Source: Ignavibacteriota bacterium (GTDB taxonomy: Bacteria; Bacteroidota; Ignavibacteria; UBA10030; UBA6906). From it: a stretch of 64,000 bases of DNA. Shown piece after piece: positions 25,417 to 42,573 of the stretch. The stretch is taken from contig CAWDEM010000004.1 of NCBI GenBank assembly GCA_963801355.1, forward strand, positions 736,001-800,000. Reading direction: 5' to 3'. Position 1 is the first letter of the stretch; every line of letters begins with the position of its first letter. The notes beneath the pieces were generated by a model. That model saw nothing but the letters and a program-made list of their open reading frames with translations. It was not told where the DNA came from and did no database searches. Both the position numbers and the translations under genes were made by a program.

Positions 25417-26783
25417 CGGAACCCACCTCCTCCCGGGCGCGCACCACCACTCTGGGGAGTAAGCGGACTTCTGGCCTGCTCTGCCTGAGCGCCATTCGCA
25501 TAGTTGATGCCCAGCACGACCCGGTCGCCGGCTTTCAGCACGGGGCTGACCGCCTCGGTAGACTTCCCGTCGGTAATTCCGGTCCGCACCATTACCGGCT
25601 CGAGTTTGCCGGAGGCATTGACGACCCATACCCGGCCACGCCCCGTCGGTTGTGACGCCACACTGGCGTTCTTCTGATACTCCGGAAAACGGAGGTCGAT
25701 GCCAAACTGCGTGTGGGTAGGCGGTTTTGTGGTGATTGCCGCAGGCGCGGCCTGTAGAGAATCGCGGAGCGCGCGGAAGCGTTCGCGGCGACTGTCGGCC
25801 ATCCCCGTGTCACCTCTCCCGCCGCCCCGGGAGCCAAGCGCTCCCTTTGCCTTCGTTGTATCGATGACGTCAACCGGTGGTTGGAAACGGAGCGCCATAT
25901 TGGGGATCTTCAGCACGCCCTGTGCGCTCGCAACGAGGATCTTCACATTGGCCGTCATTCCCGGCATGAGTTTCAATTGATCGTTGTTCACGGCAATGAC
26001 AACGGTGTAGTTCACGACATTCTGCACAGTGACCGGCGCCAGTCGTACCTGTGCTACTATTCCCCGGAATGTCTCGTCGGGATAGGAATCAACCGTAAAC
26101 GTGGCTTCCTGGCCCATGCTGATACGCCCGATATCCGATTCGTCGACTGTGGTGAGGACCTGCATCCGTCTCAAGTCATTGGCGATAGTGTAGAGTGTCG
26201 GCGAGGAAAAACTCGCAGCAACAGTCTGGCCGATATTGACTGCGCGGTTGATTACGACCCCGCTGATGGGTGCGTAGATCGTGGCATAGGCGAGATTGAT
26301 TTTTGCGCGGTCGATTGTTGCCTGTGCGGACTTCATGGAGGCGGTGTTGGACTGGAACGTGGTAAGTGCAGCGTCATAGTTCAGCTGTGATTCAAGACCC
26401 CGTACAAGCAGGGTCTCCACCCGGGTGAGACTCCGCCGGCTTTCGTCGAATTGTGCCTTGGCACGGTCAAAATTCGCTTCAGCGTCTTTCACCGCCTGCA
26501 CGAGAAACGTTGAATCGATCTGCGCAATCACCTGGCCCTTCTTCACGACTGAGTTGAAATCAGCGTAGAGTTTTGCCACGATCCCCGAGACCTGTGTTCC
26601 CACATCTACCGTCGTTACCGGGTTGATTGTCCCCGTCGCGGTTACGTACACGGTCAGATCGCCGGTCGTGACTGTATCGAATCTGAAATCATACTTCTCC
26701 GCCTTGTTGCCAACAAACAGATAGTAAGCGACGGCAGCCAGAACAAGGACAACCAGGGATGAGATAACAACTCTCTTGGTCAT
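25413..26783 (-). CDS. Efflux RND/MacA-type periplasmic adaptor subunit
   Basis: N-terminal TM anchor, VDVGTQVSG, APISGVVI, GQTVAASF, VDESDIG, LMPGMTA. Confidence 0.93.
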   Translation of the reverse strand: MTKRVVISSLVVLVLAAVAYYLFVGNKAEKYDFRFDTVTTGDLTVYVTATGTINPVTTVDVGTQVSGIVAKLYADFNSVVKKGQVIAQIDSTFLVQAVKDAEANFDRAKAQFDESRRSLTRVETLLVRGLESQLNYDAALTTFQSNTASMKSAQATIDRAKINLAYATIYAPISGVVINRAVNIGQTVAASFSSPTLYTIANDLRRMQVLTTVDESDIGRISMGQEATFTVDSYPDETFRGIVAQVRLAPVTVQNVVNYTVVIAVNNDQLKLMPGMTANVKILVASAQGVLKIPNMALRFQPPVDVIDTTKAKGALGSRGGGRGDTGMADSRRERFRALRDSLQAAPAAITTKPPTHTQFGIDLRFPEYQKNASVASQPTGRGRVWVVNASGKLEPVMVRTGITDGKSTEAVSPVLKAGDRVVLGINYANGAQAEQARSPLTPQSGGARPGGGGFR

Positions 26784-26927: not shown

Positions 26928-27707
26928 TTAACGCGCTTCCGTTACCACTTCTGCAATGAACGCCATCATTCGTTTGTAGTGCGTCCCTTCCCAATAGATG
27001 CGTCCGCACTTGGGGCAAGCGGCAAAGCGTTCGCATGCGGCTCCAACCCGGGCTGGAATGCGTTCGAGAACCGCTTCCTTTGCTGCACTTACCAAAAGGA
27101 TATTGCAGGGGAGGCAACGTGAGAGGGGTTCGGCCGATCCCCCGAGGTCGAAGCGTTTCACAACTTCCAGGATCTGCTTCCGGGGATTGTCTGTCTCTAC
27201 GGCATATGCGCGTACGAGGCGCGGGTCCCGCAGGAGCGCCCGGTCCTTACTCAGGAGGACACGGTGTTCTTCCAGTGAAATACTGATGAGCTGGTCATCG
27301 GTCGATGTCGGCGTGAAGAACGCGTCAAAACCAAACATCCGGAGGAACGTCGCAAGCTTTCCCAGATGAACATCCAGCACGAACGCCGGCCTGCGAAGAG
27401 GTCGTGATCGGAGTCGTTGTATCCGTCCGATATCGAATGTCTCAAAGACCGGATACATGCTGACCCGGTCACCACCCGCAATATGTGTTTCGAATTGCGC
27501 CACTTCGCCGTTGCGCAGCACAAGATCCACCTCCGACCGGGGAATTCCCAACAGCGCGAGAAGCCCGGCTATGGTGGTATCTCCGGGAACCGGCACCGGA
27601 AATGCAGTGAACCGCAATCCGGGTGCGAGGTGGTCGTTCAGTTCTGCATAGCACCGGACATTGACCGTTGCGGTCTCCTGTATCGGAGTCTCAGAGTCCT
27701 TTGACAA
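26928..27707 (-). CDS. Ub-Mut7C / Mut7-C PIN-family RNase with C-terminal Zn ribbon
   Basis: N-terminal YAELND...LGIP..EVDL.L.NG...GDRVSMYP ubiquitin-like domain; FVLDVHLGKLA, LLSKDR, SRCLPCN...CPKCGRIYWEGTHY; start uncertain. Confidence 0.9.
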   Translation of the reverse strand: MSKDSETPIQETATVNVRCYAELNDHLAPGLRFTAFPVPVPGDTTIAGLLALLGIPRSEVDLVLRNGEVAQFETHIAGGDRVSMYPVFETFDIGRIQRLRSRPLRRPAFVLDVHLGKLATFLRMFGFDAFFTPTSTDDQLISISLEEHRVLLSKDRALLRDPRLVRAYAVETDNPRKQILEVVKRFDLGGSAEPLSRCLPCNILLVSAAKEAVLERIPARVGAACERFAACPKCGRIYWEGTHYKRMMAFIAEVVTEAR

Positions 27708-30959: not shown

Positions 30960-31033
30960 CAGCAGGGTGTGGCGCTGGCTGGGGAAGAGGGATATTCGTA
31001 TATTATAAAGATATCCCTTAACCAGCGGACAGC

Positions 31034-32641
31034 ATGGGCATCAACGAAGAAATTCAACGCCGGCGTACATTCGCGATCATTTCCCACCCTGACGCCGGCA
31101 AGACCACCCTCACCGAGAAATTTCTCCTCTATGGCAATGCCGTCCAGCTGGCGGGCTCCGTAACGGCCCGCAAGAAGCAGCGTGAGACGGCTTCAGACTG
31201 GATGGAACTCGAACGGAAGCGGGGCATTTCGATCAGCTCCACAGTGCTTCAGTTTGAGTACGACGGCTACCGTATCAATCTGCTTGATACGCCGGGCCAC
31301 CAGGATTTCTCCGAGGATACGTACCGGGTGCTTACCGCGGTCGACGCCGTCGTGATGGTGATCGATTCTGCGAAAGGTATTGAGACGCAGACCCGCAAGC
31401 TCTTTGAAGTATGCCGGAGGCGGCGAATACCGATCTTTACATTCATGAACAAGCTCGATCGGCCGACCAGGGATCCTCTGGAACTTCTTGACGAGCTTGA
31501 ACATGTGCTGGGCATCGGGGCGTTTCCGATGAACTGGCCACTGGGGACGGGATTCCAATTCCGCGGTGTGTTCGACAGGCTTTCGAAGGAAGTACATCTT
31601 TTCGAATTCGGTGCGGGCGGTGCTTACCGGGTGCCTGTAGAGATCGGCTCGCTGGCGGATCCCGTCATCGCGGAGCGCATGGATGCCGATGAGCGGAAGT
31701 CGCTGGCGGAAGAGATGGAGATGCTGGACCAGGCAGGAGCCAAGTTCAGTCCTGCTGACGTGCTCGCCGGCCGCATCACACCGGTGTTCTTTGGCAGCGC
31801 GCGGAACAATTTCGGCGTGCAACTGCTGCTTGACGGTTTTCTGAAGTATGCCGAATCGCCGCGGCCGCGCCTAAGCAACGGTGTCGTGATTCCGGTCAAC
31901 AAGAATGTCTTCTCGGGCTTCATCTTCAAGATTCAGGCAAACATGGATCCGCGCCACAGGGACCGGATCGCGTTCCTGCGTGTCTGTTCCGGCGTTTTTT
32001 CGCGGGACATGACGGCGATACATCCGCGGAGCGGAAAGACCATCAGGCTTTCCAATGCCGCCAAGTTGTTCGGACGCGATCGTGAAACTGTCGATGAAGC
32101 ATACCCCGGGGACATCGTCGGGTTCGTGGGCCAATCGCTCCTGGGCATAGGCGACACACTCACGGAAGATCCGGGGATTGTGTACGATGAAATACCACGG
32201 TTCCCTCCTGAGTGCTTTTCGCTGCTGAGCAATCCCAATCCGTCAAAGTTCAAACGGTTCCGGGAGGGGGTTGACCAGCTGCTCCGCGAAGGCGTGGTGC
32301 AGGGATTTCAACCTCGCAATTCGTCGACGCAGATTCCGATCCTCGCAGCTGTCGGTCCCCTGCAATTTGAAGTGTTCCAGTACCGTCTGGAGAGCGAGTA
32401 CGGGGCGGAGGTGCGGCTCGAACAGACCGAGTGGAAATTTGTCCGTTGGGTGCATCCGTCCGTGGATGTGCAACTTCTCACGCCGGAAGTGCTGCCGACC
32501 GGTGCGATCCTGGCCAATGACGCTCAGGGGCAACCGGTAATTCTCTTTCCGGGGGAGTGGGCACTGCATCTCTTCGTTCAAAAGAACCCTACGGTACTCC
32601 TCGGGTTGCTTCCGTTTGAAAATGGGGTGGGAAATGAGTAA
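31034..32641 (+). CDS. prfC: Peptide chain release factor 3
   Basis: RRRTFAIISHPDAGKTTLTEK, SDWMELERKRGISI, DTPGHQDFSEDTYR, NKLDR, FKIQANMDPRHRDRIAF, AVGPLQFEV. Confidence 0.98.
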   Translation: MGINEEIQRRRTFAIISHPDAGKTTLTEKFLLYGNAVQLAGSVTARKKQRETASDWMELERKRGISISSTVLQFEYDGYRINLLDTPGHQDFSEDTYRVLTAVDAVVMVIDSAKGIETQTRKLFEVCRRRRIPIFTFMNKLDRPTRDPLELLDELEHVLGIGAFPMNWPLGTGFQFRGVFDRLSKEVHLFEFGAGGAYRVPVEIGSLADPVIAERMDADERKSLAEEMEMLDQAGAKFSPADVLAGRITPVFFGSARNNFGVQLLLDGFLKYAESPRPRLSNGVVIPVNKNVFSGFIFKIQANMDPRHRDRIAFLRVCSGVFSRDMTAIHPRSGKTIRLSNAAKLFGRDRETVDEAYPGDIVGFVGQSLLGIGDTLTEDPGIVYDEIPRFPPECFSLLSNPNPSKFKRFREGVDQLLREGVVQGFQPRNSSTQIPILAAVGPLQFEVFQYRLESEYGAEVRLEQTEWKFVRWVHPSVDVQLLTPEVLPTGAILANDAQGQPVILFPGEWALHLFVQKNPTVLLGLLPFENGVGNE

Positions 32642-32750
32642 ATTCGTACATTCTGCATCAACGTGTGCATCGAGATAGGGCCGCACACTGCTTCAGGCTG
32701 CATGCCGCTGTAGAGTTCGAGGGCGATAACCTCACGAAACCGTGAACCCA

Positions 32751-32771
32751 TTGAGACGGACACTGTCTCAA
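32751..32771 (+). promoter_or_regulatory. Palindrome TTGAGAC-N7-GTCTCAA (operator or leader hairpin) upstream of the CYTH/DASS/porin locus
   Basis: Perfect 7-bp inverted repeat, extendable with CCCA/TGGG and GTGA/TCAC, ending 33 nt before ATG 32804. Confidence 0.45.
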
Positions 32772-32803
32772 ACGTGGGGATCACTGTATTCAGGGAGACC
32801 AGA

Positions 32804-33385
32804 ATGGACAAGATCGTGGCTCGCTGGGAATGGCGGACATTCGGCAATGCGTTCGGCGTCGCCGAAGAGAAAATCACAACGTATCCCGCTAAAGTCCGGG
32901 AAAGTGCAGAGGTGTACATCCTCTCGACCCGCAGCATGGACAACACGAAGATCCGTGACATGCTCATGGACATCAAGTATCTCGTGCAGGTGAACGAGAA
33001 CAGGCTCGAGCAGTGGTACCCCCTGATGAAGGCGGGTTTTCCGATACAGCCTGATCAGGTGCGTGAGACGGTGAAAGCCTGGAAGGTGGAGGTGCCCCCA
33101 TCGGCGATTATGCTATACAGCTACGACGATTTCCTGAATGTCCTTGTGCGGAAGCATCCCGATCTCAAGATGGTGCACGTGGACAAGGAGCGCCACGGTT
33201 ACACGATCAACAACTGCATTGTGGAGATCGCCAACCTGAAATTCGACAACCAGCCGATCCGTACGATCGCGGTTGAACACGAGGACCCCAAACTCGTGTG
33301 GGAGACGGTGTGCATGCTGGGGTTGGACAAGTTCGAGAATATCAACTATCTCAAAGCGCTGAAGAAATTCGCCGCGATTCCCTAA
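32804..33385 (+). CDS. Divergent CYTH/triphosphate-tunnel-fold-like protein
   Basis: WEWRTF, TKIR, DIK, LEQW, KERH, VEIA, IAVE, NINY fall in the same order as CYTH motifs ExExK, RxR, TxK, ExE, KxR, EID, ExE; GGGAG RBS. Confidence 0.6.
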   Translation: MDKIVARWEWRTFGNAFGVAEEKITTYPAKVRESAEVYILSTRSMDNTKIRDMLMDIKYLVQVNENRLEQWYPLMKAGFPIQPDQVRETVKAWKVEVPPSAIMLYSYDDFLNVLVRKHPDLKMVHVDKERHGYTINNCIVEIANLKFDNQPIRTIAVEHEDPKLVWETVCMLGLDKFENINYLKALKKFAAIP

Positions 33386-33411
33386 ACCGCATGTCAGGAG
33401 GCATCAGCACT

Positions 33412-33882
33412 ATGGCCAAAGAAATTGAACGCAAGTTTCTTGTCATCGGGGAGGAATGGAAACGCGGGACCTCCGGCGTCTCCTACCGGCAGGGCTACCT
33501 CTCCACTGTGAAAGAACGGACGGTTCGTGTGCGCACCGTCGGGGACAAAGGATTCCTGACAATCAAAGGTGTCACGGTGGGTGTGAGTAGGAGCGAATTT
33601 GAATACCCGATTCCGACGGCCGACGCAAATGCGATGTTGGACGACCTGTGTGAACGTCCGCTGATCGAGAAGACACGCTACAAGGTCCAGCACGCGGGTC
33701 TCACCTGGGAAATCGACGAGTTTTTTGGCGAGAACCGGGGACTGATCGTTGCGGAGGTTGAGCTGAAGGATGAACAGCAGACATTTGACCTTCCCTCCTG
33801 GGTTGGCAAGGAGGTGTCAGGAGACCCCCGGTATTTCAACTCCAATCTGATTAAGACGCCCTACACGCAATGGAAGCGGTAA
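33412..33882 (+). CDS. CYTH-domain triphosphate tunnel metalloenzyme (inorganic tripolyphosphatase-like)
   Basis: EIERKFLV, RQGYL, TVRVR, LTIKG, RSEFEY, IEKTRY, WEIDEF, AEVEL, YFNSNL; AGGAGG upstream. Confidence 0.95.
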   Translation: MAKEIERKFLVIGEEWKRGTSGVSYRQGYLSTVKERTVRVRTVGDKGFLTIKGVTVGVSRSEFEYPIPTADANAMLDDLCERPLIEKTRYKVQHAGLTWEIDEFFGENRGLIVAEVELKDEQQTFDLPSWVGKEVSGDPRYFNSNLIKTPYTQWKR

Positions 33883-35402
33883 CGAGCGACGAGCTCGACG
33901 ACATCCTTGACCTTGAGAAGCACAAGCTCGCGGTCATTCCGCAGAAGCAGGTAACGCGCTTCGAACGCCGGATGAAGTATTTCAGCATCCCGTTCGGGTT
34001 CCTGGTCTTCGGATGGCTCTATTTCATGCCCACGCCGGCCGGGTTGACTGCATCGGGCCAGGCCGTGCTCGCAAGTTTCTCGCTCGCGTTGATACTCTGG
34101 ATCTCCGAAGCCATCCCCACCCACGTCACCTCCCTCGTCCTGATGGTGTTTCTCGTGTTCCTCAACGGATGGGACATGAGCAACGTGCTGGGCACGCTCG
34201 GGTATGACGTGATCTGGCTGAACGTCATGGCGTTCATCCTGAGCTCGCTGCTTGTGAAGACCCAGCTGGCCAAACGCATCGCACTGAACCTTATCGTGCG
34301 GTTCGGCCGCCGCGGGATGCCGATGCTCTTTGCCTTCGTGATCCTGCAGTTGATTCTCGCTCCGCTGATTCCCGCCACCGCCCCGCGCGCGGTCATGACG
34401 TTGCCCATCATGTTGATTGTCGGCGCGATCTATGGTTCGACAAGCGAAAGACCCAACAGCTTCGGTAAGAATCTCCTCCTGCAGAACCTTGTCGGCATCA
34501 ATGTGGCCTCCTCTGGATTCATGACCGGAAGCACGGCGAATATCATTGCGATTGGCTTCATCTATGATCTTGCCGGCACAAAGGTGTACTACTCCGACTG
34601 GATGCTGGCCAATCTTCCGGTTGTCCTGCTGCTCCTCCTCGCGACATGGTACCTGGGGCCGAAATTGTTGATACGGCTGAAGCCGGAGGAGGCCACTCCG
34701 CGCATTGCGGGAGGGCTTGACGCGTTGAAACGGCAACTGGAACGTATGGGCAAGATCACACGGGTGGAGCTGAAGGGCGCGGCAATCTTCGGCATCGTGA
34801 TCCTTCTCTGGCTCACCGACCGGTTCCACCGGAGCATGTTCGGCTTCGAAATCGATCCTGTCATGGCGGCGATGGTGGGCGGAATCATCGCCCTGCTGCC
34901 GAAGGTCGGCATCCTGAAGTGGAACGAGGCGGATATCCCGTGGCATCTTATGCTGTTCAGTGCCGGGGCGTATGCCGGGGGACTGGCGCTCAACGATTCC
35001 GGTGCGGCGCAGTGGGTGATCGGACAGGTGTTCCAACTCATCCACTTCAGCCGCGACGTGCAGTTCTGGCAGGTGTATGTCATCGTCGTCGCACTCATGC
35101 TCTATTCGCATCTGGTGTTTACAAGCAAAACGATGCGCACCATCATTCTCATTCCGTTTATTATCGGGCTTGCACGGGAGCTGGGCTTCGAACCGCTCGC
35201 TCTCGCGCTGCCGGCGGCATTCACTATCGACTGGGTCATCGGCCTCCCGATCAGCGCGAAGCCGAACGTCATTCTGTTCACTACGGGACAATATTCCGTG
35301 CTCGAGAATCTCCGGTACGGCGTGATTGTGTCAACGATCGGCCTTGTTCTCCTGGTGGTGGCCGGGTTCACGTGGTTCCGTTTTCTTGGTATTACCCCTT
35401 AG
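33870..35402 (+). CDS. DASS/SLC13-family sodium-coupled anion symporter
   Basis: LWISEAIP, LAKRIAL, PLIPATAPRA, MTGSTANII, IPWHLMLF, LPISAKPNVI; highly hydrophobic; 13-nt overlap with CYTH gene. Confidence 0.92.
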   Translation: MEAVTSDELDDILDLEKHKLAVIPQKQVTRFERRMKYFSIPFGFLVFGWLYFMPTPAGLTASGQAVLASFSLALILWISEAIPTHVTSLVLMVFLVFLNGWDMSNVLGTLGYDVIWLNVMAFILSSLLVKTQLAKRIALNLIVRFGRRGMPMLFAFVILQLILAPLIPATAPRAVMTLPIMLIVGAIYGSTSERPNSFGKNLLLQNLVGINVASSGFMTGSTANIIAIGFIYDLAGTKVYYSDWMLANLPVVLLLLLATWYLGPKLLIRLKPEEATPRIAGGLDALKRQLERMGKITRVELKGAAIFGIVILLWLTDRFHRSMFGFEIDPVMAAMVGGIIALLPKVGILKWNEADIPWHLMLFSAGAYAGGLALNDSGAAQWVIGQVFQLIHFSRDVQFWQVYVIVVALMLYSHLVFTSKTMRTIILIPFIIGLARELGFEPLALALPAAFTIDWVIGLPISAKPNVILFTTGQYSVLENLRYGVIVSTIGLVLLVVAGFTWFRFLGITP

Positions 35403-35419
35403 GTCCCGGGAATAGGAAA

Positions 35420-36199
35420 ATGCGTACTCTGCTCATCTGCATGGCGTTGCTTCTTTCGGCAGTCTCCCCGCTGACCGGGGCTGTCCGGGAAGTACCGTTG
35501 TCATTGTACGCCGAAACCGTTTCTCTTGCATCTGACGGCGGCGCGGAAATCACCGTGCGCACCATCGCCCGGGGGCTATCCGGGGGAGACACGATCGTGG
35601 TTCCGTACGCGTACGCAGGGTGGCCTGACTCCGTCGTGTACGGCGAGAACGTGCGGCAGTTGTTTGCGCAAACCGTGCAGGGACAGCGCAGGACGTTTCT
35701 TGCCCTCAGCGGGACAGTCACCGGGGAGGATACTCTGGAGTACAGGTTCCGGCTCGCTCAGGTGACATCGTTTGCCAAGGCGTCGACGGAGGACTTCGGG
35801 GTCTATGTCGTCTCGTACAGGCTGGTGCAGACCTCAATCGCACCCATTACAGCGGCGTCGGTTTGCGTGGTGTTGCCGGAGGAGATGGTGGTCAACAAAG
35901 TCGTCTCGAGTCTCCCGGTGCGGAAAGCCAACACGCCCGGGTCGCCCTACATTCTTGGCATGAAAGACGGCCGCCATTGCGTGACGCTGACAGATTCCAC
36001 CGTGCAACAAGGAGACGTTCTGTCGCTGGTGTTCCAGGCGAAGGCGGCCGCCAAATCCCCATGGCTGATCCTGGGACTGGTGCTGTGTGCCGCCGCATAT
36101 CTTATTGCGTTCCGTGACCTGCTGAAATCACCGGAAACGGTTGGGAGTATTCCAGGCAAGAACATTCATTCATCATCTTACAAGGAGCAAGGACAATGA
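35420..36199 (+). CDS. Hypothetical exported beta-rich protein with C-terminal membrane anchor
   Basis: ATG 35420 after AGGA; signal peptide MRTLLICMALLLSAVSPLTGA; C-terminal PWLILGLVLCAAAYLIAF; ATGA overlap with porin. Confidence 0.75.
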   Translation: MRTLLICMALLLSAVSPLTGAVREVPLSLYAETVSLASDGGAEITVRTIARGLSGGDTIVVPYAYAGWPDSVVYGENVRQLFAQTVQGQRRTFLALSGTVTGEDTLEYRFRLAQVTSFAKASTEDFGVYVVSYRLVQTSIAPITAASVCVVLPEEMVVNKVVSSLPVRKANTPGSPYILGMKDGRHCVTLTDSTVQQGDVLSLVFQAKAAAKSPWLILGLVLCAAAYLIAFRDLLKSPETVGSIPGKNIHSSSYKEQGQ

Positions 36200-37449
36200 A
36201 AAAAGCCGCAGGAGTTTTGTGTGCACTGTTGATGCTGCTCCCGTGCGTGTCGTCTGCGCAGTCGGAGGGCGGCGCAGATGAGGGGTCGCGGGTGCCGCTG
36301 GGTGTCGAGCAGCGAGCGGGAAAGCTGGTATTCGAGTCGCAAGACGGCGCCTTCAAGTGGTGGATCGACTCGCGCATCCAGGTTGACGGTGCCATGTATT
36401 TTGAAAACAAGAATCCCTTGAGCAACGGGACCATCATGCGCCGTGCGACGTTGGCCTTGAAGACGGTGCTCTGGACAAACTGGCAGGCGGAAATCGATAT
36501 GGATTTCGGCGATGCCGTCCTGGACGCAAGAGACATCTGGATACGGTATAGTTTTCCCAAGACGAATCTCGCCTTGCAGGTCGGGAATTTCAAAGAGCCA
36601 TTTGGTCTGGAACGGCTCGGCAGCTCCCGCCTGCTGACATTTCTGGAGCGTTCAACGCCTACCAACGCGTTCACGCTCGGCCGGCGCATGGGGCTGGCGG
36701 GGCGTTACTGGACCGACTTCGGCCAGTTGACGCTGGCCGTGATGGGGCATGAGCTTGGCACGCGGGTTGACAAGGGGACGCTGGATGAAGGGGTCGAGGC
36801 GGTGGCGCGTGTGACCTTCGCGCCGATCAATGAGAAGGGGAAGACGCTGCACATCGGCGGGGCATACGCCTCGAAGACACCGGACGTCACGCCCGACCTC
36901 GCCCCAAATACCATCGAACTGAAAGCCCGGACCGAGACCTACGTGTTCGATCCCAAGCCCCTGCACTCCGGCGACATCACAGACGTGAACTACTACGACC
37001 GGATGGGCGGCGAGCTGGCCGCTGCCTGCGGTCCGCTCTATGTCCAGGGCGAGGTGTTCACAACGGCAGTGCACCGCTGGTACGAGAAACCAACCGGCAA
37101 CTTCATGGGAGGATACCTGACAGCCAGCTACATGCTCACCGGCGAATCCCGTAGCTACTTCGTCGATGAGGGGGAATTCGGCCCGATCGACCCGCCGGGC
37201 AGCGAGTGGGGCGCACTGGAAGTTGCCGCCCGGTTCAGCCATGCCAATCTCAATGATCATGATGCCGGCATCGGGGGGGGCAAGTGCAACCAGGTGATGC
37301 TCGGGGTCAACTGGTATCCCAATGTGAATATCAAGATTATGCTGAATTTCTCGAACGTGAACCTGGACGAGAACGCCACCAGCAAGGGCCGGATGATAGG
37401 AGGAGACAACTTCTCGTTCCTCCAGATGCGGTTCCAGGCGTCGATGTAA
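36196..37449 (+). CDS. Phosphate-selective porin, OprO/OprP family
   Basis: Signal peptide; SRIQVD, MRRATL, GNFKEPFGLERLGSSRLLTFLERS, GRRMG, YMLTGESRSY, WGALEVAARFS, GVNWYPN, MRFQ. Confidence 0.92.
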   Translation: MKKAAGVLCALLMLLPCVSSAQSEGGADEGSRVPLGVEQRAGKLVFESQDGAFKWWIDSRIQVDGAMYFENKNPLSNGTIMRRATLALKTVLWTNWQAEIDMDFGDAVLDARDIWIRYSFPKTNLALQVGNFKEPFGLERLGSSRLLTFLERSTPTNAFTLGRRMGLAGRYWTDFGQLTLAVMGHELGTRVDKGTLDEGVEAVARVTFAPINEKGKTLHIGGAYASKTPDVTPDLAPNTIELKARTETYVFDPKPLHSGDITDVNYYDRMGGELAAACGPLYVQGEVFTTAVHRWYEKPTGNFMGGYLTASYMLTGESRSYFVDEGEFGPIDPPGSEWGALEVAARFSHANLNDHDAGIGGGKCNQVMLGVNWYPNVNIKIMLNFSNVNLDENATSKGRMIGGDNFSFLQMRFQASM

Positions 37450-37502
37450 TCAGTCCCATGGCTTTGAACACAGATTTGTCATATCTTTCATGAGGTCTCA
37501 AT

Positions 37503-38030
37503 ATGAACTCGCATTATCCGAAGATCCTTCTCGTGATCACTCTTATCGGTTTGACGGTCCTGGCATCATGTTCTCGGGATGAGCCGACGCTTGTCGCGCC
37601 TGTTGTAGTTGTGCCGGGAGCGATAGTCATGAACGATACCTACTCCAGAGGAACTCCCGGCAATCTCGATTGGGTCGAACTCTACAATGTGGGCGGCACG
37701 GCGGTTGATCTTACCGGCTACAAGATCTACGACAGCGGCGGTCAGACGGGCGTAAAATCGAAGAAACCCATTCCGGCAGGTACTGTCGTCCCCGCTCATG
37801 GGTTCTATGTGGTGACCACGGATACGGTCTCGCCAGGGATCGCCGACGATGGCTTCGGGCTGTCAAGTGGCGGAGACGAAGTGTGGCTTGAAAACGCTGC
37901 CGGCGGCGTCATTGACCACGTGCAAATTCCGGCGATGGAGACTACACAGACGTACGGGAGATACCCCGATGGTGGTTCAACGTGGCAACTCCTAAACACC
38001 ATAACGAAGGGCACGTCGAACAAGCAGTAG
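37503..38030 (+). CDS. Lamin-tail-domain (LTD) lipoprotein
   Basis: Lipobox LASC; IVMND...DWVELYN....VDLTGYKIYD...FGLSSGGDEVWL...YGRYPDG...TKGTSN. Confidence 0.9.
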   Translation: MNSHYPKILLVITLIGLTVLASCSRDEPTLVAPVVVVPGAIVMNDTYSRGTPGNLDWVELYNVGGTAVDLTGYKIYDSGGQTGVKSKKPIPAGTVVPAHGFYVVTTDTVSPGIADDGFGLSSGGDEVWLENAAGGVIDHVQIPAMETTQTYGRYPDGGSTWQLLNTITKGTSNKQ

Positions 38031-38102
38031 GAGGGACCGATTTTGGCAATAGAACATGTACATGGGTATCACTTACTATCCTACTCCCCAGGAGGGACAA
38101 CG

Positions 38103-39275
38103 ATGAAAAAACTGTATAGGATTCTTGCGGCGATGTTCGTCGCGTGTACCATCGCGTCGGTGAGCTTCGCGCAGGTACTCCTGAACGAAGCGTATTCGCG
38201 TGGTGTCGTGGGCAATCTGGATTGGGTGGAGGTCTACAACAATTCGGCCAGTGTGATCGATATCAGTGGATACAAGGTCTACGATGACGGTGGCCAGAGC
38301 GGTTCAAAGGACAAGAAACCATTCCCAGCAGGGACCCTCGTTCCTGCGTACGGGTTCGCCGTGATTGTGACCGATACTGCCACGGTCGGACTCAATGACA
38401 AATTCGGCCTGTCAAGCACCGGCGACAAGGTGTGGTTGGAGAACACCTCGGGTGTTCTGCTCGACAGCGTCATTGTTCCTGCGCTGGGCAACGACACTTC
38501 CGTGGCGCGGCAGACGGATGGATCGGCCAGTTGGGTGAAGCTGTCGCCGGTAACCAGGGGGACGACAAACAGCCAGGTCGTGATGAATGAAGTCTATTCC
38601 CGCGGCGTGGTTGGCGCTCTTGATTGGATTGAAATCTACAATGCCAGCGACGGCTCGATCGACATTTCCGGCTACAAGATCTACGACGACGGTGGTCAGT
38701 CGGGTTCAAAGGACAAAAAACCCTTCCCGGCAGGAACTGTCGTCCCTGCTCACGGATTCACTGTGATTGTAACCGATACTGCCACGGTCGGACTCAATGA
38801 CAAATTCGGCCTGTCAAGCACCGGCGACAAAATATGGCTTGAGAACGCAGGTGGCATCATCATTGATAGCGTCGCAATCCCTGCGCTTGGCATTGATACA
38901 TCGTATGCACGAAAACCCGATGGATCGGCGACCTGGGTAAAGATGAGCCCGACGACAAAAAGTCTCACGAACGGCACAGGTACCGCAGTGCGCGAGGAGG
39001 GCTCCGTCGCTACACGGTTCACCCTCGAGCAGAACTATCCCAATCCCTTCAATCCGAGCACAACAATACGATTCTCAGTTGTGGATCCACAATTTACCAC
39101 TCTGAGAGTGTATGACGTGCTCGGGCGTGAGGTAGCGGTCCTGGTGAACGAAGTTGAGCAACCGGGACAGTACACTGTGCAGTTCAACGCGGCAAATCTG
39201 AGCAGCGGCATCTATTTCTACACGCTCCGCGCTGGCAGCTTCGTGGAAACGAAGAAGCTCACCGTCATGAAGTAA
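38103..39275 (+). CDS. Secreted protein with two tandem lamin-tail domains and T9SS C-terminal domain
   Basis: ATG 38103 after AGGAGG; signal peptide ending SFA; two 134-aa LTD repeats; QNYPNPFNPSTTI...SGIYFYTL. Confidence 0.92.
   Translation: MKKLYRILAAMFVACTIASVSFAQVLLNEAYSRGVVGNLDWVEVYNNSASVIDISGYKVYDDGGQSGSKDKKPFPAGTLVPAYGFAVIVTDTATVGLNDKFGLSSTGDKVWLENTSGVLLDSVIVPALGNDTSVARQTDGSASWVKLSPVTRGTTNSQVVMNEVYSRGVVGALDWIEIYNASDGSIDISGYKIYDDGGQSGSKDKKPFPAGTVVPAHGFTVIVTDTATVGLNDKFGLSSTGDKIWLENAGGIIIDSVAIPALGIDTSYARKPDGSATWVKMSPTTKSLTNGTGTAVREEGSVATRFTLEQNYPNPFNPSTTIRFSVVDPQFTTLRVYDVLGREVAVLVNEVEQPGQYTVQFNAANLSSGIYFYTLRAGSFVETKKLTVMK
38370..38830 (+). repeat. 59-bp exact direct repeat (38370-38428 and 38772-38830) within the tandem LTD duplication
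   Basis: accgatactgccacggtcggactcaatgacaaattcggcctgtcaagcaccggcgacaa occurs twice, 402 bp apart. Confidence 0.9.
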
Positions 39276-39307
39276 TGCGGGCACCTCATCGTGTGCTGCC
39301 GGATTGC

Positions 39308-39339
39308 CACAGGAGCCCATCGGACGATGGGCTCCTGTG
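39308..39339 (+). terminator. Strong intergenic hairpin (terminator or mRNA-stabilising stem)
   Basis: CACAGGAGCCCATCG-GA-CGATGGGCTCCTGTG, perfect 15-bp arms 33 nt after the LTD-T9SS stop; only a short T run follows. Confidence 0.65.
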
Positions 39340-39403
39340 TTCCAAAGCTGAGGGATGCACCATGAGTCCTGGCATTGTCGCTGCACCGGGTCGCTCTTCC
39401 ATC

Positions 39404-40165
39404 ATGACCGCACTTCCCAGGATCTGTGTCATGTGTATGGCGGCGTGGGTGATCTGTCTTGTATCGTGCAGTCGTAGTGAGCAGGCCGAGAGCAACCCGG
39501 TCGCGCCCGCGGTGCAGCGGCTCCAACTCATCACATCCTATTCCATGAGCATCTCGGAACCGTCAGGGCTTGTCTACTCCCCCAGGACGCAGAAGCTCTA
39601 CATGGTGTCAGATTCCCGGGCGGCGATCTTCGTCATTGACACCACCGGCCTCATCGTGAGCACGCTCCCGGTGGACGGGCAGGATCTCGAAGGCGTTACG
39701 CTCTCGGCGAACGCGGACACCTTCTATGTGGCGGAGGAGACCCTGTCACAGATCACCTCATATCTCCCCAACGGGGTTAAGATCGCCTCCTTCCCGATCA
39801 GTGTCCGGACGGATACAAAACACGGTCCTGAAGGTGTGACCATGGACGCTGCCGGTCATCTTGTCGTTATCAACGAAAAGTTCCCGATGATGATGCTGGA
39901 GTATACGGGAACCACAGAGGTGAAACGCACGACGCTGCCATACACCACGGACATTTCCGACATCTGTTACGATGCCGCAACGGATGCCTTCTGGATTGTC
40001 AGCGATGAATCACAGATGGTGATAAAGATCTCGCGCACCGGAGCGTTGCTCGGGCAATGGAGTACGCCGGTGAATCAGGGGGAGGGGATCGCGTTCATCG
40101 GCAGCCGGATGTACATAGTGTCTGATACTGATGCGAAGCTCTACGTGTTCGTGAAGCCGTCCTGA
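39404..40165 (+). CDS. SdiA-regulated (YjiK-like) beta-propeller lipoprotein
   Basis: Lipobox LVSC; EPSGL...VSD, DLEGVT...VAEE, GPEGVT...INEK, DISDI...VSDES, QGEGIAF...IVSD repeats. Confidence 0.85.
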   Translation: MTALPRICVMCMAAWVICLVSCSRSEQAESNPVAPAVQRLQLITSYSMSISEPSGLVYSPRTQKLYMVSDSRAAIFVIDTTGLIVSTLPVDGQDLEGVTLSANADTFYVAEETLSQITSYLPNGVKIASFPISVRTDTKHGPEGVTMDAAGHLVVINEKFPMMMLEYTGTTEVKRTTLPYTTDISDICYDAATDAFWIVSDESQMVIKISRTGALLGQWSTPVNQGEGIAFIGSRMYIVSDTDAKLYVFVKPS

Positions 40166-40336
40166 TTACCAAGTCCCCATTCACTCCCGGCCCCGCACAT
40201 CCATGCTCATCACTATTTCCTCTTCCCTCATCGAAAAACACACACTCCGGCTGTAGTAATCTGGTGAGAATCAATGGACGCGAAGCGAGACACCATTGAC
40301 GAACTCACACTCACGTACCCCCCCCAAGGAGCAGCC

Positions 40337-40534
40337 ATGAAAAGAATACTGATTGCGCTTGTCATCGTGCTCTTGCTCTGCGCGACGATCACTGCTGATT
40401 CCTTTGCAAAGCCGGCATCGTGTGTGAATGCACTCCGGCAATGCGCCAATTGGTGCAGTAATTACTACGGTGATTGGTTTCCTCTGGTCGACGCCTGCGA
40501 GACCGGCTGCGCCATCGCGTATCTTTTCTGTTGA
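40337..40534 (+). CDS. Small secreted cysteine-rich peptide (65 aa; about 41 aa mature)
   Basis: AAGGAG 5 nt before ATG; MKRILIALVIVLLLCATITADSFA signal peptide; core KPASCVNALRQCANWCSNYYGDWFPLVDACETGCAIAYLFC. Confidence 0.85.
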   Translation: MKRILIALVIVLLLCATITADSFAKPASCVNALRQCANWCSNYYGDWFPLVDACETGCAIAYLFC

Positions 40535-40548
40535 TCCGGGAGAACGCC

Positions 40549-41547
40549 ATGAACGGTCTTCGCTGGATGCACATGTTGCCGGAGTACCTTTCTGTTCTCG
40601 GCGTGCTCATGATATCTCCCAGCCCGCAGCCGGCCGCCACTCGAGCGCAGACCGTTCTGAACCTCGCCCCGCATGCAACAATCGGCCTCACCGAAGAGAA
40701 TCTCATCCTGGGGGCTTTCGGCCTTGCAGCCCTCCGCGGCGAACACCTGGTCGTCGCGGACAAACTGGAATGCAGCATCAAGGTTTTCAACGCACACTGG
40801 CAGCTGGCGTATTCCACAGGCCGCAGGGGTGAAGGCAACGGAGAGTTCCGGGGGCCAGGTCCTGTCGCGACAACCGACACCCTGATAGCCGTTGCTGACT
40901 TCCAATCCACACGAGTGCAGGTCTTCACGCACCAACTCAGACACCTTTGTACGTTTCACACTGACAGACCCGTTTTCGCGCTTGCCTTCGACGGCACCGG
41001 GCAACTCTGGATCGGGCAATTGCCCAACGCCCGGGGTGAGACGCTCTTCCGTGTTGATATCCGCGGCAACATTTTGGCGCGCATAGCTCTCCGGCACGCT
41101 TCCGGGGACATATTCGACAGTGTCTTCACGCTGGCGATCACAGACAACGGAGAGCTGGTTGTAGCATACATGACCCGCAATATCGTGGAGGTCCGGGATT
41201 CCGCCGGGCGCTTCGTCCGGGACTTCTCTGTTCCTGGAATGCGCGCCGAAGCTGGACGCAGAAAGCTCTCCACCGGCTTGTTCTCGGCCAGTGTGTCAAT
41301 CCCCGAAGAGAATATGTTCCTGGGTGTCACCGCCGGCGGGGACGGCATGATCTACCTGCTCGCTGATGCCTACACCGAGAACCCCCGTCAGGATATCTAC
41401 GTCGTCAACCCGCACGGGAGAGTCATGTCCCGATTGAAGCTTCAGGAAGCATCCTCCGGCATCTGTTGTGACGGCCATGAACGGCTGTTCAGTATCGAAC
41501 GTGCCCGCATGCTCATCCATGTCTACCAGTTGCGGAGACCATCATGA
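40549..41547 (+). CDS. 6-bladed beta-propeller (NHL/TolB-like) protein
   Basis: LVVAD...IKVFN, GRRGEGNGEF, IAVAD...VQVF, DGTGQLWI, TDNGELVV, GGDGMIYL; GGGAG upstream, 14 nt after peptide stop. Confidence 0.85.
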   Translation: MNGLRWMHMLPEYLSVLGVLMISPSPQPAATRAQTVLNLAPHATIGLTEENLILGAFGLAALRGEHLVVADKLECSIKVFNAHWQLAYSTGRRGEGNGEFRGPGPVATTDTLIAVADFQSTRVQVFTHQLRHLCTFHTDRPVFALAFDGTGQLWIGQLPNARGETLFRVDIRGNILARIALRHASGDIFDSVFTLAITDNGELVVAYMTRNIVEVRDSAGRFVRDFSVPGMRAEAGRRKLSTGLFSASVSIPEENMFLGVTAGGDGMIYLLADAYTENPRQDIYVVNPHGRVMSRLKLQEASSGICCDGHERLFSIERARMLIHVYQLRRPS

Positions 41548-42573
41548 TCATTCGGGCGCTGTCATTCTTCCTCGGCGCTGTTTTCCTCGTTGCCGGCGTT
41601 GGGAAAGCTTCTCATGATCGGAACGTTCGCGGCAACCGTGGCAGCCCTGGTACCCGCCACACACGCAGTTGCCCCCGGCGTGGCGATGGTCATTGTAGCA
41701 ATTGAGATCGCCGGAGCACTCGCGCTACTCGCGGATTACAGGACGAGGATGATCTCTCTGCTCTTTTGTGTCGTGGTGGGTGCCTTCATCTGGGTGCTCT
41801 CCGCAGCAATTCTATCCGGGGAAGAGATGAGCTGCAACTGCTTCGGTATCATAGGGATAGCCCTGAGTAATACGCAGGAATTGTTCCTTGACCTTGTGTT
41901 GTTCAATGCCTTTGCCGTCCTGGCCGCCTGCACTCCCCGCCGCGACGCAGTGCCGTCTGGAGGAGATGCGAGTACCGGAGTGAGTGCACGACTCGTTGCC
42001 GGAGGGATGCTTGTACTGCTGGAAGTATTGCTGGTTCTGTTGGTTCTGCGCGGGGGAACAGACAGAAGCGGATTGACATTCGATGCGGTGATTGGCTTTG
42101 CCGAACGCGCAGACGCTCGATTTGCCGCACGCGACAACGGAAACCGCGGCCTGCTGCTCATGAACTATACCGACCTGAACTGCCCTCTGTGCCTGGATGA
42201 TTTCACTGTCTTGCTGGATTCCCTCGAATCAAGATTCGGTGAAAACTCAGACCGGGTGCTTCTGGTCTTCAAAGAAGATCAATTCATCAGGTCCGATTCC
42301 TCGCGACATATGCGGCGGTGGATTGCCGCCAACGGAATCGCGTTTCCCGTGTTCGTCGCGCCTGATTCCGTGTTCGACAGGACCCGGTTTGAAAAGAGCA
42401 CGGCTCTCGTCATCGACCGGCGAAATCATGTACTGCTCGCGGAACGGTTCCCCATGGGCATCACAAAGCGGACAGTTGCTCTTCACCTCCTCGATTCTTC
42501 TGGCTCGATAATTTCGAATTCAGGGACATTGCCTGTATCCAGGATGCGAACAGAGACACTCTTGCCTTTCTGA
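41544..42573 (+). CDS. MauE/DoxX-family membrane protein fused to a thioredoxin-like domain; +1 frameshift near 41601-41607 as assembled
   Basis: ATG 41544 (ATGA overlap) gives MIIRALSFFLGAVFLVAGVGK; continues in +1 frame as LLMIGTF...IEIAGAL...SCNCFG (MauE CxCFG)...NCPLC (CxxC)...IAFPV...ALVIDR. Confidence 0.8.

Follow-up and report, generated by a model that had tools for sequence, protein, structure and literature searches.

The eight-gene cluster at 32804-40165 of the window (the whole 64,000-nucleotide stretch of Ignavibacteriota DNA analysed here) could import PPi, PPPi or short polyP and hydrolyse it in the cytoplasm; judged from sequence families and gene context, we give this reading about an even chance. 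The import step of a route for condensed-phosphate uptake and cleavage is, to our knowledge, not yet known. A first-pass annotation had interpreted the locus as a dedicated scavenging system of which it knew no description, and the literature searched likewise gave no description of a cluster of this kind. The synteny and the tie to phosphate in that interpretation stood, whereas its independence of Pit, its two hydrolases and its likeness to a polysaccharide-utilisation-type (PUL) locus did not.

Gene content of the locus

All eight genes (g1-g8) were found as annotated, co-oriented on the + strand over the full span, with the partial overlaps that had been claimed (13 nt shared by g2 and g3, 4 nt by g4 and g5). 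Families were assigned by Pfam and NCBIfam profile searches, and those claimed for g2, g3, g5, g6, g7 and g8 were each matched by Pfam. Refined starts were ATG 32804 (g1), ATG 33412 (g2), ATG 35420 (g4) and ATG 38103 (g7), and g8 probably starts at ATG 39404.

The 156-aa product of g2 (33412..33882, +) was a canonical CYTH/TTM enzyme (PF01928, 7.6e-19, 68.7 bits). Its closest solved relative was NE1496 (NeuTTM; PDB 3typ/2fbl; E 1.2e-16), the specific inorganic tripolyphosphatase of Nitrosomonas europaea, which it resembled over its whole length. ExExK and the other tunnel residues were invariant in 23 sequences, and g2 had the basic and acidic ones too. The nearest known enzymes are NeuTTM and short-chain TTM polyphosphatases such as AtTTM3 and E. 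coli ygiF. The proposed tripolyphosphatase-type assignment agreed with these results, and g2 is probably an inorganic tripolyphosphatase. No carrier or porin linked to NE1496 was found in the literature searched, and we know of no report of one beside it. In other lineages, a Ppx/GppA exopolyphosphatase occupied the g2 position (PF02541; 7e-49 in locus L012, 1.3e-63 in L158). Because Ppx/GppA stands in for CYTH at this place, the activity needed there would be P-O-P hydrolysis.

The 193-aa product of g1 (32804..33385, +) had no match in Pfam, NCBIfam (E ≤ 0.01) or PDB sequences. Its AlphaFold2 model (pLDDT 95.9) showed a TTM fold: every top PDB match in Foldseek was a TTM/CYTH protein (E from 2.6e-6 upwards, probability 1.00), as was the top VIA-align match (Z 12.3, rmsd 3.9 Å, 154 residues), so the earlier call of a divergent CYTH-like protein held at the level of the fold. 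The gene was single-copy in its own genome and belonged to an unannotated family in which R7, E9, R11, K49, R51, K58, K76, K128, R130, E141 and E158 were invariant. NeuTTM-type hydrolases share the fold, but g1 lacked a CYTH profile match and carried an invariant RxExR at the place of ExExK; by a residue mapping that we infer, as the hhalign alignment of g1 with g2 was without significance, the first acidic-patch Glu was replaced by an invariant Arg while the second Glu of the motif was kept. According to the available part of one source, mutation of the ExExK glutamates abolished PPPase activity in AtTTM3 and ygiF (PMC4641920). With RxExR in their place and the first acidic-patch glutamate gone, g1 is more likely a non-hydrolytic partner than a second standard hydrolase, contrary to the two TTM hydrolases first envisaged.

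The 510-aa product of g3 (33870..35402, +) was a DASS-family carrier of a distinct subfamily (Na_sulph_symp PF00939, 2.5e-64; TIGR00785, 207.4 bits, cut-off 198.6) and the only DASS in its genome. It passed the models for DASS/SLC13 carriers (VcINDY, NaDC3, NaS1, LaINDY, DiT) and aligned over its full length with LaINDY and DiT1, with a best similarity to solved DASS of only about 1e-20. Unlike sodium-coupled DASS, which have SNT motifs, g3 carried Arg/Lys at those positions, within the hairpin motifs PAT..R173, S419-K420-T421-M-R423 and K464-P-N466 (alignment to NaDC3). This signature (173, K420, R423, K464) was invariant in 72/72 orthologues and common to 20/20 divergent DASS (34-41% identical) from the same gene context. 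The yeast SPX-DASS proteins Pho87/90/91 are DASS relatives that carry orthophosphate under the control of a polyphosphate-sensing domain, whereas g3 had no SPX domain. We know of no DASS or TTT carrier that moves phosphoanhydrides. As far as the available part of the source goes, an earlier AtTTM3 structure held citrate in a crystal form that also binds PPPi (PMC4641920), from which we infer by analogy that citrate-type carriers could accept PPPi.

The 259-aa single-pass membrane protein g4 (35420..36199, +) was matched neither by Pfam nor by NCBIfam (E ≤ 0.01). It had been described as a membrane-anchored exported protein, in keeping with its signal peptide and C-terminal TM helix plus YLxFFRDL; with two periplasmic beta-sandwich domains, it was arranged like Ribophorin I/Ost1 (Foldseek E 3.2e-6, TMq 0.40-0.47). 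The gene lay directly 3' of DASS in 63/73 DASS-anchored loci. Prediction of a DASS-g4 complex scored 0.50 against 0.00 for the best control, with at least 90% contact agreement between runs and a partner pLDDT of at least 74, and supports the pairing weakly: 116/157 solved complexes and 2/215 mismatches reached the mark, but at scores of 0.60 or below just 18 of the 157 did so, together with both mismatches. Probably g4 serves the DASS carrier as an accessory subunit, a kind of single-pass partner that we know from no other DASS.

The outer-membrane porin g5 (36196..37449, +), with a signal peptide, was a full-length member of the OprO/OprP family (Porin_O_P PF07396, 2.4e-53), and porins of this family occurred in 29/37 DASS-anchored and 43/59 g1-anchored loci. 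OprP and OprO of Pseudomonas belong to the Pho regulon and are phosphate/pyrophosphate-selective, with OprO preferring pyrophosphate and polyphosphate. Their relative g5 is similarly found near phosphate carriers, but is linked to a module of DASS/TTT with TTM/PPX and not to Pst. A separate, weak Porin_O_P-like neighbour was observed at the Pst locus of the same genome.

The remaining genes encoded an LTD (lamin tail domain) lipoprotein (g6, 37503..38030, +; PF00932, 2.2e-14; lipobox LASC in the translation); a protein that is secreted or attached to the surface, has LTD in two stretches (4.4e-28) and ends in a C-terminal T9SS type A sorting domain (g7, 38103..39275, +; PF18962, 8.1e-12; TIGR04183, 3.2e-12); and a beta-propeller lipoprotein (g8, 39404..40165, +; lipobox LVSC, from the translation). 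The latter matched the SdiA-regulated (PF06977, 7.3e-19) and Phytase-like (PF13449, 4.3e-11) families, Atlas clusters of both, and YjiK (3qqz) at E 2.4e-4. An LTD gene was present in 21/49 loci and a propeller gene in 23/49, mainly in Ignavibacteriota; these genes are lineage-specific additions outside the conserved core, and the capture by LTDs and processing by the propeller once written into the route were purely inferred roles. In the available part of one source, ExeM could largely do without its LTD, whose role was not known (PMC6085458). As in PULs and in the SusCD phosphate-utilisation loci of Bacteroidota, genes for surface lipoproteins, for a T9SS-exported protein of binding type and for a channel in the outer membrane are joined here to inner-membrane uptake and cytoplasmic breakdown. 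However, Pfam detected no SusC/SusD or TonB-dependent transporter among the locus genes, which have a diffusion porin instead and a lineage-specific surface module, leaving "PUL-like" as an analogy only.

Conservation and modular structure

The comparison covered 158 related loci and showed a modular cluster spread over many phyla. Synteny was read from DASS-anchored loci and, in an independent scan, from g1-anchored loci, with at least 556 g1 relatives in species genomes. The genes are grouped far beyond chance. Both g1 and g2 were present in 37/43 DASS-anchored loci, bearing out the synteny expected around DASS homologues, and 13/80 loci had co-oriented matches to all eight genes. Among g1-anchored loci, CYTH (44) or Ppx/GppA (23) lay within 1.5 kb downstream in 67/74, and DASS or TTT (TctA) was found in 57/59. 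The conserved core is g1, followed by a CYTH or Ppx/GppA hydrolase and then by an importer of multivalent anions, DASS+g4 or TTT (TctCBA); PhoU_div+PiT, NptA and the OprO/P porin are usual attachments to it, and the presence of their genes inside the same clusters upholds the tie to phosphate. PhoU_div and PiT each occurred in 27/43 DASS-anchored loci, in most relatives as a pair between g4 and the porin, including 13/13 full-set loci. The window has lost this pair from that site, and its genome keeps one about 0.55 Mb away and also encodes Pst. Since the nearest relatives keep PhoU_div-PiT in the cluster, the claimed independence of Pst/Pit fails for the family. One fused g1-Ppx/GppA protein was found (P0121, 492 aa), which could be a gene-calling artefact (one cluster, 4 sequences, one 2.7-kb contig).

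By Pfam, locus L158 had the order g1-PPX-TctC-TctB-TctA, and such clusters pair a binding-protein-dependent importer with a polyphosphatase. In gut/rumen Clostridia and Spirochaetia, tblastn found only g1, PPX and TctA side by side, with no Pi transporter beside them among the queries used. Marinimicrobia clusters held TTT, PiT, NptA and DASS all together, and four carriers in one cluster argue for different substrates.

Regulatory elements

The sigma-54-like -24/-12 element about 127 nt 5' of g1 (AGGGCCGCACACTGCT; 32677..32692, +) was weak, agreeing at 8/12 positions with what we take to be the sigma-54 consensus, and is not convincing. Among relatives, 21/117 regions upstream of g1 reached at least 10/12, 51-125 nt from the ATG, compared with 0/231 controls. 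A PhnD-like binding protein, a histidine kinase and a sigma-54 response regulator were encoded divergently beside g1 in four relatives (L006, L012, L098, L111), resembling AioXSR-type oxyanion sensing. This trio was missing from the window and its genome, where PF12974 had no match. The perfect 15-nt inverted repeat between g7 and g8 (39308..39339, +) had no T-run behind it, no call in the terminator scan and no Rfam match; it is possibly an RNA hairpin.

Alternative explanations

An unlikely but serious alternative is phosphate homeostasis on internal stores. The DASS or TTT carriers would move orthophosphate in or out while g1 and g2 (or PPX) degrade or sense the cell's own polyP or PPPi, in the manner of ppk-ppx and PhoU-type regulators, or break down polyP with Pi efflux as in a PAO-like case. 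Consistent with this, the cluster adjoins Pi carriers and PhoU-type regulators (PhoU_div+PiT, NptA-PhoU), g1 looks non-catalytic, and Pho87/90/91 offer a precedent for Pi carriage under polyphosphate sensing. The window's own genome has PPK1 and a canonical PPX, so use of the cluster on internal polyP is possible there. Relatives resemble ppk-ppx operons and PhoU/PhoU_div-regulated Pit/NptA in holding an exopolyphosphatase and PhoU_div+PiT, but no polyP kinase lies in the cluster, where the polyphosphatase pairs with g1 and an importer. Against homeostasis, neither PPK1 nor PPK2 was detected in 21/31 sampled carrier genomes (0/13 g1-PPX-TTT genomes had either; of 18 others, PPK1 was in 8 and PPK2 in 2/10 of the PPK1-less; all MAGs of unstated completeness), so that mobilising PPK-made stores cannot be what the hydrolase is for in most of the carriers sampled. 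TTT systems work only as importers and need a binding protein, and we know of none for Pi; if Pi were the substrate of all four carriers in one Marinimicrobia cluster, they would be redundant, and the presence of an outer-membrane porin and of surface proteins suggests uptake.

Somewhat less probable still, DASS-g4 and TTT could import another multivalent anion (a phospho-carboxylate, phosphonate, phytate breakdown product, sulfate, arsenate or metal-citrate), with TTM/PPX acting on a product that has nothing to do with inorganic polyP, such as a nucleotide or pppGpp. DASS and TTT classically carry di-/tricarboxylates or sulfate, the AioXSR-like trio adjoins the cluster in relatives, g8 falls in a "phytase-like" family, and Ppx/GppA enzymes also cleave pppGpp. 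However, the swap between NeuTTM-like CYTH and Ppx/GppA is best explained by a common inorganic P-O-P substrate, the cluster is constantly accompanied by Pi carriers and phosphate porins, and the carboxylate-type SNT motifs are replaced in the DASS.

It is improbable that g1 is a bacterial Vtc4-like polyP polymerase, forming with the hydrolase an analogue of ppk-ppx that stores imported phosphate in organisms without PPK1/PPK2. The TTM fold, the gene order, the one fusion with PPX and the 13/13 g1-PPX-TTT genomes without PPK1 and PPK2 would fit, as would the Arg at the first acidic-patch position; in the available part of the source, Vtc4p also has basic residues at the acidic-patch place of hydrolases (PMC4641920). 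On the other side, g1 keeps the second Glu of the motif, unlike Vtc4p as described there, and this residue comparison depends on the mapping given above. Pfam gave g1 no VTC or CYTH match, and PPK1 is already encoded in the genome of the window; that no Vtc4 structure was among the 50 matches listed by Foldseek or VIA is at most a weak point. Annotation as adenylate cyclase, after CyaB, is frequent for CYTH proteins according to the accessible part of one source (PMC3440374), but a class IV cyclase g2 in a signalling unit with no nutrient route is very improbable, given the specific PPPase NE1496 as closest solved relative, a replacement by Ppx/GppA that would make no sense for a cyclase, and no cNMP-binding partner in the cluster.

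Proposed route

Under the condensed-phosphate reading, PPi, PPPi or very short polyP would pass the outer membrane via the OprO/P-family porin, and the DASS-g4 pair would move it over the inner membrane, with the conserved Arg/Lys in place of Na+/carboxylate-binding SNT motifs. The probable tripolyphosphatase g2 would split it in the cytoplasm, g1 serving as a substrate-binding or regulatory partner, and orthophosphate would enter by the PiT and Pst encoded elsewhere in the genome. Against this route, the DASS could carry plain orthophosphate, by analogy with yeast Pho87/90/91, and Ppx/GppA enzymes usually favour long chains or (p)ppGpp, which could hardly be imported by a secondary carrier. 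In the Ignavibacteriota, g6, g7 and g8 would form a surface module that may retain and process a polyanionic polymer of phosphorus extracellularly. The locus may well be an expanded version, of Ignavibacteriota type, of a widespread and modular cluster for phosphorus acquisition.

Organization of the locus

The locus comprised eight genes on the forward strand, spanning positions 32804-40165 of the window, with prfC (31034-32641) upstream and an unconserved ORF downstream. The first gene, g1 (32804-33385), matched no Pfam or NCBIfam family at E ≤ 0.01. It was followed by g2 (33412-33882), a CYTH protein (PF01928, E 7.6e-19, 68.7 bits against a cut-off of 23.2), and g3 (33870-35402), a DASS carrier (PF00939, E 2.5e-64, 218.5 against 27; TIGR00785, 207.4 against 198.6). 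The single-pass protein g4 (35420-36199) had no family match in Pfam or NCBIfam, and g5 (36196-37449) belonged to the OprO/OprP porins by its profile (Porin_O_P, PF07396, E 2.4e-53, 182.1 bits against 20.9) and by the signal peptide in its translation. The last three genes encoded predicted surface proteins: an LTD lipoprotein with lipobox LASC (g6, 37503-38030); a protein with two LTDs that was assigned to T9SS cargo by a C-terminal type A sorting domain above both cut-offs (g7, 38103-39275; TIGR04183, 46.3 against 23; PF18962, 45.7 against 27); and a propeller lipoprotein with lipobox LVSC (g8, probably 39404-40165; PF06977 SdiA-regulated, E 7.3e-19, 68.4 against 21; PF13449 Phytase-like, E 4.3e-11, 43.7 against 27.6). 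Overlaps of 13 nt (g2/g3) and 4 nt (g4/g5) were present. The six family calls of the first-pass annotation (g2, g3, and g5 to g8) were upheld by Pfam and NCBIfam.

A promoter and terminator scan returned sites no more numerous than in shuffles, and Rfam matched zero families over 31000-42000. From the stop codon of g7 to the likely start of g8 there were 128 nt, and in this stretch lay a perfect 15-nt inverted repeat with a 2-nt spacer (39308-39339). It was not followed by a T-run, and it may form an RNA hairpin that separates g8 expression. The ORF at 40474-41547 (+; 357 aa, weak NHL match, E 0.0022) was rejected as a ninth gene, as just one weak match (L028, E 5e-7) was found among the 158 related loci compared. 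Just upstream of prfC, positions 28203-30959 (+) encoded a protein of 918 aa. It contained BNR/Sortilin-type repeats and weakly matched both an M6 peptidase and, at E 1.7e-4 (under the Pfam cut-off), a T9SS sorting domain. A Mut7-C RNase gene with an N-terminal ubiquitin-like Ub-Mut7C domain (26928-27707, −; E 8.5e-43 and 4.1e-17) adjoined a MacB-type efflux set, HlyD-ABC-FtsX (23414-26783).

Conserved gene linkage

In a scan anchored on the DASS carrier, in which each species was represented by a single genome, 106 relatives were found and 80 loci retained. Their record labels included Ignavibacteriota, Acidobacteriota, Krumholzibacteriota, Neomarinimicrobiota, Fibrobacterota, Vulcanimicrobiota, Riflebacteria, and Elusimicrobia, among others. 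Counting loci with enough flank, both g1 and g2 were present in 37/43, g4 stood immediately 3' of the DASS gene in 63/73, and an OprO/P porin was found in 29/37, so the gene-neighborhood analysis bore out the proposed synteny. PhoU_div and PiT genes each occurred in 27 of 43. The central role that had been given to the LTD and propeller genes did not hold up, with LTDs in 21/49 loci and propellers in 23/49. Co-oriented matches to all eight genes were found in 13 of the 80 loci, and in all 13 a PhoU_div-PiT pair lay between g4 and the porin, which contradicted the claim that the system is independent of Pit. In the window, g4 abutted the porin and the pair was missing from that site; an orthologous pair was located ca. 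0.55 Mb away in the same genome. In Marinimicrobia clusters the gene order was g1-g2-TctCB-TctA-PhoU_div-PiT-NptA-x-DASS-g4, with genes for propeller proteins coming next.

When the g1 alignment was used as query in a second, independent scan, at least 556 relatives turned up in species genomes, and 80 loci were retained. The genomes bore the labels of considerably more than twelve lineages; new compared with the first scan were Cloacimonadota, Calditrichota, KSB1, Spirochaetia, Lentisphaeria, and gut or rumen Clostridia. Within 1.5 kb after g1, 67 of 74 loci carried a gene for a CYTH protein (44) or a Ppx/GppA exopolyphosphatase (23), and five of the remaining seven carried a CYTH gene within 5 kb. 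The Ppx/GppA identity was given by Pfam (E 7e-49 in locus L012 and 1.3e-63 in L158), and L158 had the Pfam-based order g1-PPX-TctC-TctB-TctA. A DASS or TctA gene was present in 57 of the 59 g1 loci whose downstream flank reached 5 kb; separate counts over these 59 were DASS 37, TctA 20, PiT 45, PhoU_div 45, porin 43, and NptA 4. For Clostridia and Spirochaetia, tblastn queries gave only g1, PPX, and TctA, adjacent to one another. The interpretation offered in the first-pass annotation was supported in part, and its phosphoanhydride theme held.

Two further genes were seen near these clusters. In loci of Calditrichaceae and Cloacimonadota, an inserted DUF498 (PF04430) gene separated g1 from the hydrolase gene (L098:7649-8050 and L107:6027-6407). 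Several of the loci for which an OprO/P porin was not found encoded, beside the cluster, a conserved family-less protein of ca. 310-340 aa (L044:7811-8800, L049:9039-9977, L005:13751-14776, and relatives). One member gave a weak CYTH match (E 0.002), and the protein may be a third TTM-like component.

Phosphate systems and polyphosphate kinases of carrier genomes

Besides PPK1 and a long PPX, the window's genome had two Pst loci and two PiT genes, and the locus thus supplements the standard phosphate systems. Neither kinase was detected in the 13 genomes with a g1-PPX-TTT cluster (PPK1 0/13, PPK2 0/13), while PPK1 was present in 8 of 18 other carriers and PPK2 in 2 of the 10 PPK1-less ones. 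The eight positive genomes indicated that the search can find PPK1 where it is present. Overall, 21 of the 31 sampled carriers, which are MAGs of unstated completeness, yielded neither PPK1 nor PPK2. This pattern weighed against a g1-hydrolase pair that mainly mobilizes polyphosphate made by the cell's own PPK. Either the substrate would then be imported, or a new synthase would make it. A cluster for phosphate homeostasis that works on internal polyphosphate, with the DASS or TTT carriers moving orthophosphate, would suit the frequent PiT and PhoU_div neighbors; given the PPK pattern, we regarded it as unlikely, if the most serious competitor to import of condensed phosphate. Elsewhere in the window's genome (C8:1676464-1681205; loci L002 and L166), a pstB gene above the curated cut-off was found ca. 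3 kb from a second, weak Porin_O_P-like ORF (E 1.2e-4), and the Pst system may have its own porin.

The DASS carrier and its candidate partner g4

Ser-Asn-Thr hairpin motifs are a feature of sodium-coupled DASS carriers. The g3 protein was about equally far from every solved DASS (E ca. 1e-20), and no Pho90-type match was found among solved structures at E ≤ 0.001. Aligned to NaDC3, g3 had neither of the two Ser-Asn-Thr motifs; the sites read PAT(A)xR (PAT..R173) and S419-K420-T421-M-R423, and a further motif was K464-P-N466. These residues were invariant in 72/72 orthologues, and the same signature was present in 20/20 DASS proteins of matching gene context that were 34-41% identical. By this signature, g3-type carriers are a separate DASS subfamily, with a predicted site that is more cationic.

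The g4 protein was built from a signal peptide, two beta-sandwich domains, and a C-terminal transmembrane helix, with a conserved YLxFFRDL motif. Its only structural likeness was to a ribophorin I/Ost1-like arrangement at high rmsd, the Atlas search returned unnamed clusters, and no function followed from either. Complex prediction for DASS and g4 gave a median score of 0.50 against 0.00 for the best control; contact agreement between runs was 90% or higher, and the partner pLDDT was no lower than 74. Among solved complexes, 116 of 157 passed the mark used, as did 2 of 215 mismatches. With scores of 0.60 or under, however, the mark was passed by just 18 of these 157 complexes, together with both mismatches. 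Together with adjacency, the prediction weakly suggested a DASS-g4 pairing.

Regulation

In relatives, genes for a PhnD-like periplasmic binding protein, a histidine kinase of the Cache type, and a σ54 NtrC-type response regulator adjoined g1 in divergent orientation (L006:7659-8600, L012:5858-8349, L098:2675-6597, L111:2975-6792). By analogy, the trio resembles three-component sensors of oxyanions of the AioXSR type; no PhnD-like gene was found in the window's genome. Elements of the σ54 type (-24/-12) scoring at least 10/12 preceded g1 in 21/117 loci and in 0/231 control stretches. The window's own element (32677-32692, +) was weak at 8/12, and for this reason σ54 control is not claimed for this genome. 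An oxyanion sensor of this kind would also fit a cargo that is some other multivalent anion; with a CYTH or Ppx/GppA gene following g1 in nearly all loci, we considered such a cargo rather improbable.

g1 as a TTM-fold protein

Sequence searches with g1 gave chance matches alone in the PDB (best E 0.64), and hhalign against the g2 family was not significant (probability 0.5%, E 0.11). The AF2 model, made from 26 homologues, had a pLDDT of 95.9 and eight long strands, and its best structural matches were all TTMs (Foldseek E from 2.6e-6, prob 1.00; VIA-align Z 12.3, rmsd 3.9 Å, 154 residues), including AtTTM3, HpAC1, thiamine triphosphatases, ygiF, and archaeal CYTH proteins. The model contained the eight-stranded closed beta-tunnel fold, and on this modelled structure g1 is a real TTM-fold protein. 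In the alignment, the tunnel-type residues R7, E9, R11, K49, R51, K58, K76, K128, R130, E141, and E158 were invariant. In place of ExExK, g1 carried R7-x-E9-x-R11 (RxExR), invariant in 26 sequences. The description of g1 as a divergent CYTH-like protein was therefore sound at the level of the fold, and failed at the CYTH profile and the ExExK motif.

According to PMC4641920, both ExExK glutamates of AtTTM3 and ygiF are part of an acidic patch for the catalytic metal, their mutation strongly lowers PPPase activity, and the polyphosphate polymerase Vtc4p has basic residues in place of this patch. With RxExR replacing ExExK, g1 is probably not a standard hydrolase, and the notion of two hydrolases was abandoned. 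On a putative residue mapping, the first Glu of the patch is Arg in g1, but the second is kept. A Vtc4-like polymerase, with g1-PPX as an analogue of ppk-ppx, would also supply the new synthase that the PPK pattern allows. Pfam gave no VTC profile match, and the 50 Foldseek/VIA matches listed did not include a Vtc4 structure. We regarded a polymerase as very unlikely.

One 492-aa protein consisted of a g1 domain (42% identical) fused to Ppx/GppA. One public source labels many g1 homologues (P0007, P0014-P0016, and others) as exopolyphosphatase or guanosine pentaphosphate phosphohydrolase, and these homologues had no Ppx/GppA domain. The name probably spread from fused or neighboring genes.

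g2 as a candidate tripolyphosphatase

The closest solved relative of g2 was the specific tripolyphosphatase NE1496 from Nitrosomonas (PDB 3typ, 2fbl; E 1.2e-16). All tunnel residues were kept (E4, E6, K8, R39, R41, K52, K87, R89, E100, D102, E115, and E117) and invariant in 23 sequences. Likeness to NE1496 suggested that g2 may carry out metal-dependent PPPi hydrolysis of the NeuTTM type. A role for g2 as an adenylate cyclase was considered and rejected, as its nearest solved relative is NE1496 and a Ppx/GppA gene takes its place in other loci; a cyclase-based signalling unit is barely credible.

Probable surface genes

The g8 protein resembled YjiK (3qqz, E 2.4e-4), and its Atlas neighbors carried family names alone. 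To our knowledge, its SdiA-regulated/phytase-like family has no established enzyme activity. We infer that the products of the LTD and propeller genes probably make up a module on the cell surface that serves a polyanionic polymer of phosphorus; for a bacterial LTD, PMC6085458 leaves the role open. None of the eight proteins matched a SusC-like TonB-dependent transporter or a SusD-like lipoprotein, and the comparison of the locus to a PUL is an analogy.

Proposed route and significance

The folds are all known, and phosphate gene clusters are of a known kind. No description of the cluster was found in the literature searched, which did not extend to subscription journals and supplements. Within that literature, it appears undescribed that genes of a new TTM family are conserved next to those for a polyphosphatase and for an importer of the DASS or TTT type; the DASS subfamily signature and the DASS partner g4 appear undescribed as well.

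As the most likely reading, held at even confidence, we propose that the locus handles a small condensed phosphate. In this route, PPi, PPPi, and perhaps P4 would enter through the OprO/P-type porin; the DASS carrier with g4, or TTT systems in other phyla, would carry them inward; and g2 would cleave them, assisted by g1 in a binding or regulatory role. Orthophosphate would be left to PiT and Pst. The analysis establishes the gene content, folds, conservation of motifs, synteny, and PPK pattern, whereas the steps of transport and catalysis are all inferred. Taken across all carriers, the cluster may be the first dedicated bacterial import route for condensed inorganic phosphate (PPi, PPPi, or short polyphosphate), employing either a DASS protein with a new single-pass subunit or TTT, and g1 may be a polyphosphate handler working with a CYTH or PPX hydrolase, either by binding the chain or as a transferase of the Vtc4 kind. 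The carriers would include sediment, wastewater, and animal-gut anaerobes without polyphosphate kinase. We hold this wider reading tentatively, somewhat short of even confidence.

The dissolved phosphorus pool really includes polyphosphate and pyrophosphate, and the route of their cellular uptake is an open question. In a 2026 Haloferax paper (PMC13318637), the mechanism of polyphosphate import was unknown in that organism, and its identification was called important. The cationic-signature DASS subfamily, g4, the TTT systems paired with exopolyphosphatases, and the g1 family are testable candidates. The database naming of g1 homologues as exopolyphosphatase would be corrected, and g1 would be a genetic marker by which condensed-phosphate use could be followed in metagenomes from sediment, wastewater, and gut.
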